Shown piece by piece: positions 1,442-4,038 of a stretch of DNA of 4,038 nucleotides. Source of the stretch: a virus (taxonomy: Duplodnaviria > Heunggongvirae > Uroviricota > Caudoviricetes); IMG/VR virus record IMGVR_UViG_2703719368_000026; one strand, given 5' to 3'. The notes below the pieces were generated by a model, which worked only from the letters and a program-made list of their open reading frames with translations, had not been told where the DNA came from and did not search any database. Both the position numbers and the translations under genes were made by a program. How positions within the stretch are numbered: the stretch's first letter is position 1; the number at the start of each line of letters is the position of its first letter.

Positions 1442-1720
1442 TCAGTTTTTGCCAGATAAGTAACGCCACGGGCAGGGGATCCCCTGCCGTTCGTATGAAC
1501 GGCGCAAAATCGTGTTGTCGAAGTTGGCTCCATTTCCCCAGACCTGAACAAAAAATTCACCGGAGTTTTCGTCGATAAATTCCCGCAATTGTAACAGTGC
1601 ATCATCTAACGGGATTTCATCGGTCATAATGGCAGATTGCGCTTCGCGTGATTGCTTAAGCCACCATTTAATGGTGTCCCTCGCCGTGTGCTTTCGTGTT
1701 GTGTGCCTGCTTTTTACCAC
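1442..1720 (-). CDS. Hypothetical protein in the leftward operon; possible remnant of a larger gene
   Basis: 92-codon ORF beginning with GTG at 1720; first in-frame ATG is at 1627, and no convincing RBS was seen for either. Contains GNGANFD, which weakly resembles the exo II motif (HNAxFD) of DEDD-type 3'-5' exonucleases, but the ORF is too short for a complete domain. An 18-bp perfect palindrome (1471-1488) lies in its 3' end. Coding status uncertain. Confidence 0.35.
   Translation of the reverse strand: MVKSRHTTRKHTARDTIKWWLKQSREAQSAIMTDEIPLDDALLQLREFIDENSGEFFVQVWGNGANFDNTILRRSYERQGIPCPWRYLSGKN
1471..1488. repeat. 18-bp perfect GC-rich palindrome GGCAGGGGATCCCCTGCC
   Basis: Read directly; centred on GGATCC. 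Lies in the 3' end of the 1442..1720 ORF (encodes QGIPCPW). No U-tract on either strand. Confidence 0.7.
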
Positions 1721-1744
1721 GTCAGGCGAGGTGGTCCCCGTTAT

Positions 1745-1790
1745 TCCCCAACAACAAGGATCTTGTTAATCTGGATATCCCCAACAACAA
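1745..1790. repeat. Two exact 13-bp direct repeats TCCCCAACAACAA (1745-1757 and 1778-1790) upstream of the cargo ORF
   Basis: Read directly: the repeats are 33 bp apart start-to-start. The second abuts the AAGAG Shine-Dalgarno, and the first bracket-repeat copy lies between them. Confidence 0.7.
1763..1780. repeat. Left copy of bracket repeat TTGTTAA-TCTGGATATCC (13-bp inverted repeat partner plus TTGTTAA direct repeat)
   Basis: AATCTGGATATCC (1768-1780) is the exact reverse complement of GGATATCCAGATT (2335-2347). TTGTTAA (1763-1769) is repeated directly at 2346-2352. The core GGATATCC is itself palindromic. Confidence 0.7.
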
Positions 1791-1804
1791 TAAGAGTATT
1801 GAAT

Positions 1805-2320
1805 GTGATCGCTGAATTAACGGCAGCAATGACGGCTATTCGTGAAACCGCCCAGATTGCAAAACTAATGAACGAGGCAAAAACTCAAGCTGAAGTAAAT
1901 GCGGCTATTGGTGAACTGAACTCAAAGCTTGCATCTATTCAGCGCGAATGCGTGTCTCTCGTTGAGCTGGTGGGCACTTATCAAGAAATAAATGCTTCTC
2001 TCAAAGCTAAAATTGCAGAATTTGAAAACTTTGAGGCTCAGACGGAAGGTTATATCCTTAGCCAACTTGAGTCGGGAACTTTTGTGTACTCGAAGGAGGT
2101 AACCGTGAACGGCGGCAGCATAATCATGCATCTTTGTCCAAAATGTTTTGGACAAAAGATAGTATCGATACTTCAGCCATTCCCGGTTAGAGAATATGAA
2201 TTTTTTCATAAAAGCAGGTGCCTGTACTGTAAAAATCAGTTTCTTATGAATAAAAATCCGGATTACGTATCACCTCCATCTATTGAAGAGTTGGCCAGAA
2301 AACTGAACGGCAATCTGTAG
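1805..2320 (+). CDS. Uncharacterised coiled-coil / C4 zinc-ribbon protein (candidate moron or exclusion/defence cargo gene)
   Basis: Long plus-strand ORF convergent with the leftward operon. Most plausible start is GTG 1805 with AAGAG (1792-1796) 8 nt upstream; alternative ATG at 1829. The TTG-initiated extension back to 1652 is rejected. The N-terminal ~100 residues are Ala/Glu/Lys/Gln-rich amphipathic helix; the C-terminus has CPKC-(24 aa)-CLYC. Looks AT-rich by eye relative to flanks, especially the 3' half (not computed). Stop TAG at 2318-2320. Confidence 0.65.
   Translation: MIAELTAAMTAIRETAQIAKLMNEAKTQAEVNAAIGELNSKLASIQRECVSLVELVGTYQEINASLKAKIAEFENFEAQTEGYILSQLESGTFVYSKEVTVNGGSIIMHLCPKCFGQKIVSILQPFPVREYEFFHKSRCLYCKNQFLMNKNPDYVSPPSIEELARKLNGNL
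2133..2156. repeat. Palindrome TTTGTCCAAAA-TG-TTTTGGACAAA inside the cargo ORF (11-bp arms, 2-nt spacer)
   Basis: Read directly. It encodes the LCPKCFGQ zinc-knuckle residues of the 1805..2320 protein. Confidence 0.7.
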
Positions 2321-2334
2321 ATTTTTACTGTTAT

Positions 2335-2352
2335 GGATATCCAGATTGTTAA
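2335..2352. repeat. Right copy of bracket repeat GGATATCCAGA-TTGTTAA
   Basis: Partner of 1763-1780, located 15 nt after the stop of the 1805..2320 ORF. Confidence 0.7.
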
Positions 2353-2359
2353 AGAGCAT

Positions 2360-2383
2360 GCCGGATGCTTGCTTGTGTCCGGC
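2360..2383. repeat. Hairpin-capable inverted repeat GCCGGA-n12-TCCGGC between the convergent cargo ORF and the leftward small ORF
   Basis: 6-bp GC-rich stem with a 12-nt loop in the 114-bp convergent intergenic gap. The minus strand follows with CUCUUU; the plus strand has no U-tract. Weak as a terminator. Confidence 0.3.
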
Positions 2384-2434
2384 GCGTGTGCACCACTCTC
2401 CCCCCGTGGAGGATTCCTTAATTACCAGATTTCA

Positions 2435-2665
2435 TTAGTCAGAGTTTCTTGCTAACCAGCGACGCGCGCCAGATTCGGTTTTAAACGTTTTGCTTTTGGT
2501 ATACGTCATCGCGGTGAACGTGCCGTCCTGGTTGGGAAACACGCCGCACACCAGAGATTCGTTGTTGCCAAGATCAAGAGTATCCATGCTGACCTCATAT
2601 CCCCTTAACGCCGGGGTAGCGGAACAAAAACCTGCTGCATAGTTAAAGTTGAACCCTGCCGTCAT
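2435..2665 (-). CDS. Small hypothetical protein, first ORF downstream of the P_L-like promoter (YdaF/YdaG-position ORF)
   Basis: 76-codon ORF with ATG at 2665 and a possible GAGG Shine-Dalgarno about 9 nt upstream. An internal ATG at 2587 (also GAGG-preceded) would give a 50-aa product. It sits where Rac carries ydaG/ydaF, but I cannot confirm sequence identity from memory. Not Arg-rich at the N-terminus, so not an obvious N-type antiterminator. Confidence 0.4.
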   Translation of the reverse strand: MTAGFNFNYAAGFCSATPALRGYEVSMDTLDLGNNESLVCGVFPNQDGTFTAMTYTKSKTFKTESGARRWLARNSD

Positions 2666-2765: not shown

Positions 2766-2794
2766 ACTATAGGAAATGCCTAATTGCTTGTCAA
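2766..2794 (-). promoter_or_regulatory. P_L-like sigma70 promoter for the leftward early operon
   Basis: On the minus strand: -35 TTGACA (plus coordinates 2789-2794), 17-nt spacer, -10 TATAGT (2766-2771). Predicted start near 2759, giving a ~90-nt leader before the ORF at 2665. Embedded in operator half-sites. Confidence 0.6.
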
Positions 2795-2902: not shown

Positions 2903-3379
2903 TTAAGTTCCTGTCTTGGTGATGTTCTGGCTTTTCCGTTTTGATTCTTGATTTTTCAGATAGTTAGCTACCTTCATTTCCATTGCGGCAATGTAGGCAC
3001 GAACGTCATGATCAACCCAACTAGGCTCCGTAGCATTTCCAGATAAGAGGAAAGCCACAATTGCTCTTTTTTCATCAGAGGCGGCTTGATAAAGGCTGTT
3101 TATGTCTAAAAGTTCACTTTTTGTATCTGAAGTGGATGGGGTTGGTATGGGGTATTCGTTAAGCCCCCAATGCTCTGGACCAACCACATCAGAAAAGAAA
3201 CGCCATAGTTCTGGAAGTTTGTCTTTACTTATCGAACCTTTCTTAATCCAGTCATGGATTGATGGTGGTTGGACTTTGAAATGACGTGCGATTTCCGCCT
3301 TTGATTTGACGGCTCCTGATGCAATTTTTTTGTTAATGGCCTGCTCTATCGCTCGGCCTAAGTCTTTACCACTAAGCAT
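2903..3379 (-). CDS. racR: Prophage repressor, RacR-like (Cro/CI-type HTH, no S24 peptidase domain)
   Basis: 158-aa ORF, the same length as E. coli K-12 RacR as I recall it. HTH segment SKAEIARHFKVQPPSIHDWIKKGSI. ATG at 3379 has an AGGAGA Shine-Dalgarno about 10 nt upstream (plus-strand CTCCT 3391-3395). Divergent from ydaS with operator repeats between them. Stop TAA at 2903-2905. Confidence 0.85.
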   Translation of the reverse strand: MLSGKDLGRAIEQAINKKIASGAVKSKAEIARHFKVQPPSIHDWIKKGSISKDKLPELWRFFSDVVGPEHWGLNEYPIPTPSTSDTKSELLDINSLYQAASDEKRAIVAFLLSGNATEPSWVDHDVRAYIAAMEMKVANYLKNQESKRKSQNITKTGT

Positions 3380-3406
3380 TGCTTAATAGTCTCCTATGCG
3401 CATCGC

Positions 3407-3474
3407 ATTAGGCAATACCTACTCTCGAAGCGTTAGGCATAGCCTATTGACAATTGCATTAGGCTAAGCCTAAT
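3407..3474. promoter_or_regulatory. O_R-like operator cluster (ATTAGGC/GCCTAAT half-sites, including 17-bp palindrome ATTAGGC-TAA-GCCTAAT)
   Basis: ATTAGGC at 3407-3413; TTAGGC-ata-GCCTA palindrome at 3433-3446; ATTAGGC-taa-GCCTAAT palindrome at 3458-3474, lying between -35 and -10. The 12-mer GCCTATTGACAA (3442-3453) is identical to the minus-strand 12-mer at P_L. Confidence 0.55.
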
Positions 3475-3476
3475 AT
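3447..3476 (+). promoter_or_regulatory. P_R-like sigma70 promoter for ydaS-ydaT
   Basis: -35 TTGACA at 3447-3452 and -10 TAATAT at 3471-3476 with an 18-nt spacer (or CTAATA with 17). Predicted start near 3483, ahead of the GGAG Shine-Dalgarno and ATG 3504. Confidence 0.6.
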
Positions 3477-3503
3477 TATTGTGTGTTTTTTGGAGTTCAT
3501 TCG

Positions 3504-3827
3504 ATGAAAAAAGATAACTATTCATTCAAACGAGCTTGTGCTGTTGTCGGTGGGCAATCAGCAATGGCTAGGCTTTTAGGTGTATCTCCTCCAAGCGTAA
3601 ATCAATGGATCAAAGGTGTACGTCAGTTGCCTGCTGAGAGATGTCCTGCGATTGAACGAGCAACAAAAGGTGGTGTCCTGTGTGAAGAACTTCGTCCTGA
3701 TGTTGATTGGACATACTTACGACGCTCGTCATGTTATTCGCAGAATATGTCGATGAAGCAACCAAATGACGAAAACGATCATACCCGAAGCATCAAGAGG
3801 CAAATGATTCATGAAAATCAAACATGA
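3504..3827 (+). CDS. ydaS: Cro-like HTH regulator, YdaS family
   Basis: ATG at 3504 with GGAG (3492-3495) 8 nt upstream; the ORF track's GTG at 3483 gives a less likely 7-codon extension. HTH GGQSAMARLLGVSPPSVNQWIKG is typical of YdaS/Cro-like proteins. Transcribed divergently from racR, and its 3' end overlaps the ydaT start by 17 nt. Confidence 0.85.
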   Translation: MKKDNYSFKRACAVVGGQSAMARLLGVSPPSVNQWIKGVRQLPAERCPAIERATKGGVLCEELRPDVDWTYLRRSSCYSQNMSMKQPNDENDHTRSIKRQMIHENQT

Positions 3828-4038
3828 GCACATCCGCATGGCGATGAATGCCTGGGCATATCCTGATGGTGAGAAAGTTCCTGCAGCTGAAATAGCCCGG
3901 ACTTATTTCGAACTGGGGATGACGTTCCCGGAACTGTACGACGACAGCCATCCGGAAGCCCTGGCTCGTAATACCCAGAAAATTTTCCGTTGGCTGGATA
4001 AAGACACCCCTGATGCTGTTGAAAAAATGCAGGCTCTG
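3811..4038 (+). CDS. ydaT: YdaT-like protein (cII-position gene of Rac-type prophages), 5' partial; continues beyond window
   Basis: ATG at 3811 opens a frame running to the window end with no stop: MKIKHEHIRMAMNAWAYPDGEKVPAAEIARTYFELGMTFPELYDDSHPEALARNTQKIFRWLDKDTPDAVEKMQAL. This matches my recollection of the Rac YdaT N-terminus. Not in the supplied ORF track because it has no stop in the window. Confidence 0.8.
   Translation, partial: MKIKHEHIRMAMNAWAYPDGEKVPAAEIARTYFELGMTFPELYDDSHPEALARNTQKIFRWLDKDTPDAVEKMQAL

Follow-up and report, generated by a model that had tools for sequence, protein, structure and literature searches.

An inverted repeat around a Rip1 homologue marks the conserved flanks of the exchangeable sieB slot of lambda-like prophages

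Results

The two copies of a short inverted repeat that bracket ECs_1504, a gene of the Sakai prophage Sp6, are the inner ends of conserved regulatory flanks around a swappable prophage slot and not the scar of an insertion. This slot is the sieB slot of lambda-like prophages: lambda sieB and rip1 of phage HK446 occupy the equivalent position, and one class of cargo matches Pfam SieB (E = 3e-13). At least 34 unrelated protein clusters fill it, and the cargos found behind one leader include SieB, Rip1 homologues, a GhoS-like protein, zinc-ribbon peptides and many unknowns.

Within the 4,038-nt stretch of DNA that was analysed (the window), the earlier note had placed the repeat correctly, with TTGTTAATCTGGATATCC at 1763-1780 and GGATATCCAGATTGTTAA at 2335-2352, and the 13-bp inverted repeat that it described is real: AATCTGGATATCC (1768-1780) and GGATATCCAGATT (2335-2347) are perfect reverse complements of each other. 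A repeat search of the window extends it inward to 26 nt with 81% complementarity (1768-1793 and 2322-2347). The shuffled-sequence null that had been suggested was run here with dinucleotide counts preserved: of 1000 shuffled windows, 3.2% contained, at any position, a perfect inverted repeat of 13 nt or more whose arms were 100-700 nt apart. By itself the 13-mer is only mildly unusual, and it gains its weight from the comparative data. The accompanying direct repeat, TTGTTAA, is present at both ends as described and occurs three times in the window (1763, 2346 and 3330), but its left copy is not conserved, being replaced by CGGTTAA, TGTATAA or GGCTAA in related loci, and its right copy, read on the other strand, is the tail of a boxA.

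The portable module spans about 1697-2357 and comprises a sas-like region, the putative cargo promoter and leader, the cargo gene, the right arm of the repeat and the boxA. A segment of exactly 1697-2357 shares 93.5% identity with CPS-53-type prophages, in which it lies in a different context, and the whole block is lacking from K-12 Qin. It begins 66 nt outside the left repeat copy, and the annotation of an exonuclease pseudogene stops at 1684, just outside the module. The earlier idea that the gene was acquired as a discrete module stands in so far as the cargo is exchangeable and the repeat copies lie at the inner ends of conserved flanks.

Homology identifies the left flank as a sas-type antisense-RNA gene with a sieB-type promoter and leader. 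The predicted homologue of the P22 and lambda sas antisense RNA (1697-1812, minus strand) is antisense to the cargo's start codon, SD sequence and leader. The minus strand from 1812 to 1690 aligns with the published P22 sas RNA-seq sequence (PMC13397905) and with the regions upstream of sieB in lambda, HK446 and K-12 Rac, and the arrangement is that of lambda sieB and HK446 gp37, antisense to the leader and start of the slot gene and between early-left genes. The 3' half of the RNA has 28 invariant alignment columns, and its 3' part holds a conserved 31-mer (1704-1734, minus strand) that is exact in 120 or more IMG/VR loci and in 11 genera of Enterobacterales. This 31-mer could form an H-type pseudoknot (GCCUG/CAGGC and CCAC/GUGG), for which compensatory variants occur in Edwardsiella (CCGC/GCGG) and K-12 Rac (GCCCGG/CCGGGC). 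A coding role for it was rejected, since frames differ and indels occur, and a literature search on the 31-mer returned nothing.

Adjoining the 31-mer is a covarying hairpin of the sas-like RNA, TCCCCGTT...AACAAGGA in plus-strand letters (1735-1760, minus strand), which is fully paired on the minus strand only, through two G.U pairs. Its stem variants include TTCCTT/AAGGAA, TTCTCG/CGAGAA, TTCTTGCT/AGCAAGAA and others, and five pairs in helix 1 of the RNA are changed on both sides. On the named sas structure, 92.4% of cells are paired against 31-50% on a slid register, six pairs are changed on both sides and the covariation score was reached in none of 500 shuffles, for a small sample of ten sequences from which the structure itself had been derived. 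Pairs were counted on the named structure because RNAalifold, applied to the sas alignment, missed the hairpin through alignment offsets. Rfam gave no match in the window at E up to 1, and in related loci it gave only DicF, C4 and isrK, all located elsewhere.

Two direct copies of TCCCCAACAACAA (1745-1757 and 1778-1790, plus strand) lie around a -10-like element, and the second forms the C/A-rich 5' leader of the cargo mRNA. Both copies change together across lineages (TTCCACAGTCAA, CCCCTACAG, CCCCAATGCAA). The left copy of the inverted repeat (1763-1780, plus strand) holds an extended -10-like TGtTAATCT (1764-1772) and the predicted start region, and aligns with TATAAT or TGnTATAAT at the same place in other lineages, which points to it as the -10/+1 region of the cargo promoter; the arm proper (1768-1780, extended to 1793) lies within it. 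On the minus strand, the same copy is inside the sas-like RNA. A simple sigma-70 promoter and terminator scan of 1600-2500, minus strand included, returned nothing. An AgvB-type anti-sRNA, considered for the resemblance of the C/A-rich leader to a GcvB target, was rejected, as those genes lie downstream of PR'.

On the right flank, the arm of the repeat (2322-2347, minus strand, with the exact 13 nt at 2335-2347 and the extension from 2322) borders a candidate boxA, GCTCTTTAACA (2347-2357, minus strand), which would serve on a leftward transcript as a loading signal for Nus factors (NusB/NusE) and so alter termination. This boxA is a perfect match to the consensus GYTCTTTAANA (PMC5725501) and the only one in the window, where 0.03 would be expected by chance, and it is conserved beside the slot with other cargos. 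The right repeat copy starts at its last base, so that the arm would read AAUCUGGAUAUCCAUAACAGUAAAAA directly after boxA on the leftward transcript. As an inverted near-copy of the cargo mRNA leader, the right arm is complementary to the sas-like RNA. Sequence and folding suggest a hairpin, GCCGGA...TCCGGC (2360-2383, minus strand), close upstream of boxA on the same strand. A pL-like promoter (TTGACA, 17 nt, TATAGT; 2766-2794, minus strand) matches the consensus at 11 of 12 positions and is accompanied by RacR-operator-like TAGGC..GCCTA repeats; boxA lies about 400 nt downstream of it, after the first gene. A leftward transcript from this putative promoter would cross boxA and then the cargo gene in antisense.

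The cargo gene itself (1805-2320, plus strand) starts at GTG, an ATG at 1803 being out of frame with it, and encodes 171 aa. The product matches phrog_1244 (E = 8.5e-58), and its AlphaFold2 model (pLDDT 91) matches HK446 Rip1, PDB 9oox, in Foldseek (E = 5e-7, probability 1.0) with a target-normalised TM-score of up to 0.71; phmmer aligns residues 14-150 with 9oox (E = 3.6e-7). The model has helices at residues 3-23 and 28-79, followed by a C-terminal beta domain in which C111, C114, C139 and C142 are invariant. From these sequence and model matches, the cargo is a homologue of the anti-phage protein Rip1, and by this homology would have protective activity. Rip1 (ring interacting pore 1), known from phage HK446 and Pseudomonas prophages (Patel et al. 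2026, via PMC13434031), protects against phage by sensing the small terminase or portal ring and forming a pore. Scans of the cargo with Pfam, NCBIfam and PADLOC yielded nothing usable, and a literature search for ECs_1504 found nothing.

The two arms are kept whatever the cargo: in about 25 cargo/variant combinations from Escherichia, Shigella, Salmonella, Citrobacter and Klebsiella, 15-19 of 22 positions match. One locus, L191, retains a perfect 13 with a different inner sequence (AATCTGGATGACT / AGTCATCCAGATT), and both arms are changed in locus L107 (GTAACCCTC / GAGGGTTAC) and in SfIV (CTGGTTATCCCC / CTGGTCCCC). Changes on both arms are confined to these three lineages, and the arms are conserved mainly in sequence. 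Loci without boxA (L265, L284, lambda, P22, HK446 and K-12 Rac) have no right arm and a different left arm. In Providencia, Xenorhabdus, Pantoea and Arsenophonus, the scaffold is present but showed no clear inverted repeat or cognate pairing; as the repeat is missing from these genera and from lambda, P22, HK446 and K-12 Rac, the scaffold does not depend on it.

When whole transcripts were folded, the arms paired in each of 12 loci. Their predicted duplex in the window is more stable on the minus strand than on the plus strand (-27.3 versus -22.5 kcal/mol), as it is in 8 of 12 loci; the arms of L191 pair better on the plus strand. Mismatches that turn into G.U on the minus strand are in excess, but the left arm, being C/A-rich, confounds this count. 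Cognate and non-cognate duplex energies in 60-nt windows differed (permutation p = 0.008 on the minus strand, 0.02 on the plus strand), a comparison too noisy, and too confounded by shared ancestry, to be relied on.

The explanation that we favour, and to which we give about an even chance, is that the copies are the inner flank ends of a portable sieB-slot module whose arms pair in the leftward RNA. A possible alternative, although on balance an unlikely one, is that the right arm arose long ago as an inverted duplicate of a leader unit (-10-like AAT, CTGGATATCC and a C/A-rich tract) and that each copy has been kept separately, the left as cargo promoter and leader and the right either as 5' leader to a leftward ORF or within a nut-like site; the arms would then never pair and their complementarity would be a by-product. 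A leftward 69-aa ORF of SfIV has the right arm as its 5' leader, with a strong SD and the ATG following the arm there and in Kati, so the arm may have a role of its own. That arm conservation lies mostly in sequence, that other genera have the scaffold without the inverted repeat, and that the boxA tail AACAAT and the -10 element TAAT supply three matching bases for free also fit such a duplication. In the window and in L191, however, the right arm is in the 3' UTR of the cargo, antisense to it, with no leftward ORF to serve. L191 and L107, moreover, changed both arms in step, and where boxA and the right arm are missing, the left arm is always a different one.

A protein might instead join the two ends. 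The earlier note had offered as its second reading that a regulator loops out the gene, here a dimeric DNA-binding protein that would sit on the GGATATCC palindromes and repress the cargo promoter, which we judge improbable. An 8-bp palindromic core at both ends, its widely conserved sequence and the overlap of the left site with -10/+1, a typical operator position, all suit it, as would the right-arm variant ATATCCACA, which may resemble a DnaA box; the likeness of the repeat to an IHF site or a DnaA box is partial only. Nevertheless, L191, L107, SfIV and two further variants (A19 and C5) lack the palindrome at one end or at both while they keep complementarity. Neither the immunity repressor (RacR-type or LexA-like) nor the cargo is constant beside the sites, which leaves no cognate phage protein to co-vary with them, and no candidate for the binding protein emerged. 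A LexA box was also considered for the repeat and rejected.

Insertion was the main reading of the earlier note: the ORF would have entered a palindromic site by site-specific or transpositional means, duplicating the GGATATCC core and leaving TTGTTAA as a target duplication. We consider this highly improbable. The layout does run direct repeat, inverted repeat, cargo, inverted repeat, direct repeat, and L191 has a terminal inverted sequence of its own. A split site nonetheless calls for an empty counterpart, and the one-core, unoccupied allele TTGTTAATCTGGATATCCAGATTGTTAA is absent from 5,426 complete E. coli genomes, the phage collection and IMG/VR, which contradicts both this reading and an att-like insertion with core duplication. 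Four kinds of search for empty sites gave nothing relevant. The 38-mer junction had no megablast match and no blastn match with at least 80% coverage in the 5,426 genomes; the 18-bp palindrome had only four matches in IMG/VR, all in unrelated genes; and the distance from left flank to boxA is never below 562 nt in 120 loci. The exchanged block, 1697-2357, also differs from the segment that the repeats bound.

Neither end of the repeat behaves as an insertion would have it. The left copy lies between two co-varying TCCCCAACAACAA copies in an integrated promoter and antisense-RNA unit, which an insertion into a hairpin could not have created. TTGTTAA is unconserved on the left and belongs to boxA on the right. 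Observations of the kind that the earlier note had named as refuting its reading were also made: the same ORF occurs without the right copy in three loci (L035, L072 and L090) and in Edwardsiella; the HK446 relative has a different -10/+1 stretch and an N gene instead of boxA; and many unrelated ORFs are bracketed by the same repeat. The module contains no transposase, and the cassette keeps one orientation, always within the same scaffold. A transposable element was rejected on the unconserved direct repeat, on element ends that do not fall at the inverted repeats and on the missing empty sites; an invertible cassette was rejected on the constant orientation of the cargo, and an integron attC on GTTAATC, which does not match GTTRRRY. 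Finally, a chance match is scarcely credible: it is eased by an 8-bp palindromic core and has the shuffle frequency given above in its favour, but the same arm pair recurs across genera and cargos, the repeat reaches more than 20 nt and the arms change together in some lineages, so that the comparative data already contradict it.

Discussion

Our preferred reading, in which the module's arms pair in the leftward RNA, suggests how the early-left transcript could deal with an opposing gene. The segment after boxA, the first 13-26 nt of the right copy, would pair with the sas-like segment of the same RNA. In cis, a long-range helix formed right after boxA would close off about 550 nt of untranslated RNA antisense to the cargo; it can be compared with the helix between rRNA leader and spacer, and might be a processing site. 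A free sas-like RNA might also bind, in trans, to the segment next to boxA. Transcription antisense to the slot may meet a termination barrier there. When NusG is lowered, transcription reads through into kilR of the Rac prophage (PMC5793797). In K-12 Rac, kilR adjoins sieB leftward, at a locus without boxA.

A more speculative extension, which we hold doubtful as a whole, is that lambda-like prophages without N (Rac-, Qin- and CPS-53-like) have a self-contained 'cassette holder' in which defence genes are kept. Its boxA would load the host Nus complex just before the early-left transcript crosses the defence gene in antisense, and the 13-26 nt that follow would base-pair with the sas-like segment on the other side of the cassette. 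The resulting helix, like that of an rRNA operon, would loop out, and perhaps process out, the untranslated antisense RNA, and through the sas-like RNA lytic read-through would be tied to control of the defence gene. If so, the same holder serves at least 34 unrelated cargos across Enterobacterales. If the boxA-linked pairing is real, a phage uses host rRNA-type antitermination and RNA looping to cross an opposing gene, which would also bear on the silencing by Rho and NusG of toxic genes such as kilR in prophages without boxA.

The findings place a newly described immune family, Rip1, under a control region first worked out for P22 sieB, and suggest that such defence genes are switched by antisense RNA once their own prophage goes lytic. 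The conserved flanks (31-mer, sas-like hairpin and boxA) additionally provide a simple sequence handle with which to find defence and accessory genes in prophages.

Among known systems, transposon or MITE ends and integron attC cassettes are superficially alike, with an inverted repeat around one gene that varies between genomes. A conserved target duplication, an empty site, a recombinase and a second context, which mark those elements, are absent here, and, unlike transposon or MITE ends, the repeats belong to the conserved flanks and not to the moving part. As at lambda nut sites, boxA precedes sequence that a leftward early transcript would have to read through. In lambda, boxA is followed by a spacer and boxB, with N; here there is no N gene and no boxB-type hairpin after boxA, and the hairpin instead precedes boxA.

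A counterpart in order is the leader of rRNA operons, in which a hairpin and boxA are followed by the 5' strand of an RNase III helix (PMC8632103). As in that leader (boxB hairpin, boxA, boxC), a hairpin and a consensus boxA come directly before one strand of a long-range complementarity, and the complementarity encloses long untranslated RNA. Unlike in the rRNA operon, what is enclosed is RNA antisense to a protein gene, and the helix, of 13-26 bp, is one predicted from sequence and folds, whereas the rRNA helix is cut by RNase III. Tested as an rRNA-type leader, the locus also departs from the model, in that the helix is not maintained in all boxA scaffolds and is absent from many relatives.

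The left flank has its counterpart in the sas antisense RNA of the sieB/esc region of P22 and lambda (Ranade and Poteete 1993, as cited in PMC12197685 and PMC13397905). It is homologous to sas in sequence and predicted structure, lies antisense to the leader and start of a rightward slot gene within the leftward early operon, and has the same duplicated motif around the -10 element. A sas RNA is a discrete product of about 105-127 nt that alters translation of the sense mRNA, and the homologue here may do likewise. Unlike in P22 and lambda, the gene behind the leader is a Rip1 homologue and not sieB; in P22, lambda and HK446, the N gene abuts the slot, which has neither boxA nor an inverted copy of the leader.

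For the cargo, the predicted layout is that described for Rip1, an N-terminal helical part and a C-terminal ring-contacting domain (PMC13434031). Pseudomonas rip1, unlike the gene here, is located between terminase genes (PMC13434031). HK446 Rip1 matches the cargo in sequence and in modelled fold, but at only about 28% identity, and its locus is without boxA and the inverted repeat; its gene nonetheless occupies the same slot, behind the same sas-type leader.

Results

The ORF that runs from a GTG at 1805 to 2320 (171 aa), which the earlier note described as cargo, is indeed flanked by an inverted repeat: 18-mers lie at 1763-1780 and 2335-2352, and their 13-bp arms (1768-1780 and 2335-2347) are exact reverse complements. 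The repeat reaches inward to 26 nt at 81% (1768-1793 / 2322-2347), and TTGTTAA occurs three times in the window. Among dinucleotide-preserving shuffles of the window, 3.2% contained an exact inverted repeat of at least 13 nt with arms 100-700 nt apart, so the 13-mer alone is suggestive, not decisive. A longer repeat, the perfect 16-nt pair TGTCTTTATCCAGCCA / TGGCTGGATAAAGACA, lies within int and ydaT (675-690 and 3991-4006), 3.3 kb apart.

In its main reading, the earlier note took this arrangement for the scar of an insertion into a palindromic site, with a duplicated core and TTGTTAA as a direct repeat. The label 'cargo' is apt; the scar finds no support. No empty-site allele was found in the genomes, phage collection or IMG/VR: megablast of the reconstructed junction against 5,426 complete E. 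coli genomes gave nothing, no blastn match covered ≥80% of it, its best matches in the phage collection were occupied or different sites, and the 18-bp palindrome occurs four times in IMG/VR, each in an unrelated gene. A pattern search with left flank and boxA 30-60 nt apart matched only unrelated sequences. CPS-53-type prophages share exactly positions 1697-2357 (93.5% identity) in a different context, a block larger than the repeat-bounded segment: its left end lies 66 nt outside the left copy and its right end 5 nt beyond the right one. In K-12 Qin the entire block is missing between ydfC and dicF (L250:2440-2530), replaced by a filler of 40 nt. The left TTGTTAA is CGGTTAA, TGTATAA or GGCTAA in relatives, three related loci (L035, L072 and L090) and Edwardsiella carry the same ORF with no right copy, and the relative in phage HK446 has no such arms. 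Findings of this kind are what the earlier note had named as refuting its reading.

The right copy overlaps a predicted boxA, a Nus-factor signal. On the minus strand, GCTCTTTAACA at 2357-2347 is the window's only match to GYTCTTTAANA, the gamma-proteobacterial boxA consensus (PMC5725501), with 0.03 expected by chance; a hairpin lies just ahead of it (2383-2360). TTAACAA within this boxA is complementary to the right TTGTTAA, and the first base of the right arm is the last base of boxA. The boxA CCAGATTGTTAAAGAGC is retained beside the slot under different cargos, for example in SfIV, A19 and C5. CPS-53-type modules (L002:4660-4700 and relatives) have, after the boxA complement, a good intrinsic terminator for the cargo, GCGTCC..GGGCGC then TTTTTT, whose tail forms boxA on the other strand; farther on, GCTAACGAATC might make a second, outer pairing with its complement GATTCGGTTA in the left flank.

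The left copy lies in a leader of the sas/sieB type. Its 31-mer (1704-1734) is exact in more than 120 IMG/VR loci and 11 genera of Enterobacterales, on the minus strand: Escherichia, Shigella, Providencia, Proteus, Morganella, Moellerella, Xenorhabdus, Photorhabdus, Pantoea, Mixta and Arsenophonus. This element, the 3' part of sas-type RNAs, can fold into an H-type pseudoknot, for which Edwardsiella and K-12 Rac show compensatory variants; Rfam holds no family for it, and no mention was found in the searchable literature. Beyond the 31-mer come a hairpin with a co-varying stem and a -10-like element (TGtTAATCT here; TATAAT or TGnTATAAT in other lineages). The lineage-specific motif TCCCCAACAACAA is present in two copies (1745-1757 and 1778-1790), the second followed by a Shine-Dalgarno sequence and then by very different ORFs. 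A 'short' scaffold version also exists, in which the sas-type hairpin supplies its 3' arm as the Shine-Dalgarno sequence of the cargo.

The same arrangement stands upstream of sieB in phage lambda (directly) and K-12 Rac, and of gp37 in HK446. The P22 sas antisense RNA, whose sequence is known from RNA-seq (PMC13397905, Table 2), is its reverse complement from the sieB start codon to just beyond the 31-mer, and minus strand 1812-1690 of the window aligns with it. The hairpin and possible pseudoknot are 92% paired, with six pairs altered on both sides; with the register slid, pairing falls to 31-50%. Leader arrangement and alignment together give the left copy two identities: on the plus strand, we infer, the -10/+1 stretch of a sieB-type promoter, at which a simple promoter scan detected none, and on the minus strand, judging by the alignment, an internal segment of a putative sas-like antisense RNA. 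K-12 Rac (L382:2300-2960) carries sieB behind a diverged sas-type leader, with the sieB end overlapping ydaF and no boxA.

In Escherichia, Shigella, Salmonella, Citrobacter and Klebsiella, about 25 different cargo/variant combinations carry boxA, and in these the first 22 nt beyond it agree with the left arm at 15-19 positions, with 7-14 exact from the start. Three lineages are altered on both arms: L191 (left AATCTGGATGACT, right AGTCATCCAGATT), L107 (GTAACCCTC, GAGGGTTAC) and SfIV (CTGGTTATCCCC, CTGGTCCCC). Where boxA is missing (e.g. L265, L284, lambda, P22, HK446 and K-12 Rac), the left arm differs and there is no right arm. Scaffold and boxA are present in Providencia, Xenorhabdus, Pantoea and Arsenophonus, with no clear inverted repeat.

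The cargo sits in the sieB slot, which harbours sieB in lambda and gp37 in HK446. One cargo class matches Pfam SieB (E=3e-13), and at least 34 unrelated protein clusters stand behind the same leader (loci L106-L379), including SieB, several Rip1 homologues, the ECs1072 family, a GhoS-like protein, zinc-ribbon peptides and small membrane proteins. The window's cargo falls into phrog_1244; its homologues all carry the annotation 'hypothetical'. Its AlphaFold2 model (pLDDT 91) matches PDB 9oox, HK446 Rip1 (Foldseek E=5e-7, probability 1.0), which sequence alone also recovers (E=3.6e-7). According to Patel et al. 2026, as summarised in PMC13434031, Rip1 is an anti-phage protein; it detects the ring of the small terminase or the portal and makes a pore.

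The window matches E. coli O157-type genomes at 100% identity; its counterpart in Sakai is prophage Sp6, adjoining potC. Int (1-1119), xis (1088-1366), an N-terminally truncated 3'-5' exonuclease pseudogene (ending at about 1684), the DUF1391 gene (2435-2665) and racR (2903-3379) lie on the minus strand; the cargo ORF ECs_1504 (1805-2320), ydaS (3504-3827) and ydaT (from 3811) lie on the plus strand. Consensus-like promoters flank racR, leftward at 2794-2766 (TTGACA, 17 nt, TATAGT) and rightward at 3447-3476; an early transcript started at the former would run leftward through the DUF1391 gene and next, in antisense, through the cargo ORF. TAGGC..GCCTA inverted repeats overlapping both promoters (2770-2813 and 3402-3482) are probably RacR operators, and GGGTTGGTATGGG, 13 nt long, is directly repeated, with copies at 2750 and 3139.

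At 1459/1460, within the exonuclease pseudogene, the window lacks 135 bp found in the otherwise 100% identical NZ_CP032808 (L001:3061-3195) and in the other close matches listed. The exonuclease gene loses its N-terminus right at the module's left edge (1684-1697), and the early-left genes that normally separate slot from xis, among them dicB and kil, are absent; a deletion therefore joined the module to the exonuclease remnant. In strain A19 (L006:1825-2013) this same early-left operon contains a C4 antisense RNA and isrK beside a Rha gene, a P1/P7 immI-like module immediately leftward of the slot.

Discussion

Because the right arm nearly repeats the cargo mRNA leader in inverted orientation, it is complementary to the sas-like segment of the predicted leftward transcript on which both lie. 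We favour a reading in which the arms would pair as RNA on that transcript, because whole-transcript folds pair them in all 12 loci and the predicted duplex is mostly stronger on the minus strand: -27.3 kcal/mol against -22.5 on the plus strand for the 26-nt duplex in the window, with the minus strand favoured in 8 of 12 loci, about equal in three and worse in L191. The segment after boxA would pair in cis with the sas-like segment or, alternatively, a free sas-like RNA would pair with the boxA-proximal right arm. The main rival sees in the right arm a leader copy, duplicated in inverted orientation and retained for a function of its own; in SfIV the arm is indeed followed by a leftward ORF of 69 aa.

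The placement of boxA makes sense, since it would precede about 550 nt of untranslated antisense RNA, a natural Rho target. The termination barrier would probably be the stretch antisense to the slot. When NusG is lowered, transcription can read through into kilR, a gene of the Rac prophage (PMC5793797); in K-12 Rac this gene comes immediately after sieB in the leftward direction, and boxA is absent there.

No description of a boxA combined with an inverted copy of the leader, the two enclosing a hypervariable cargo, was found in the limited searchable literature. The components are of known kinds, namely the sas/sieB control region, boxA and Rip1. The order of hairpin then boxA is that of rRNA operons (PMC8632103), and the proposed helix between the arms would resemble the rRNA leader-spacer helix, which likewise comes after boxA.
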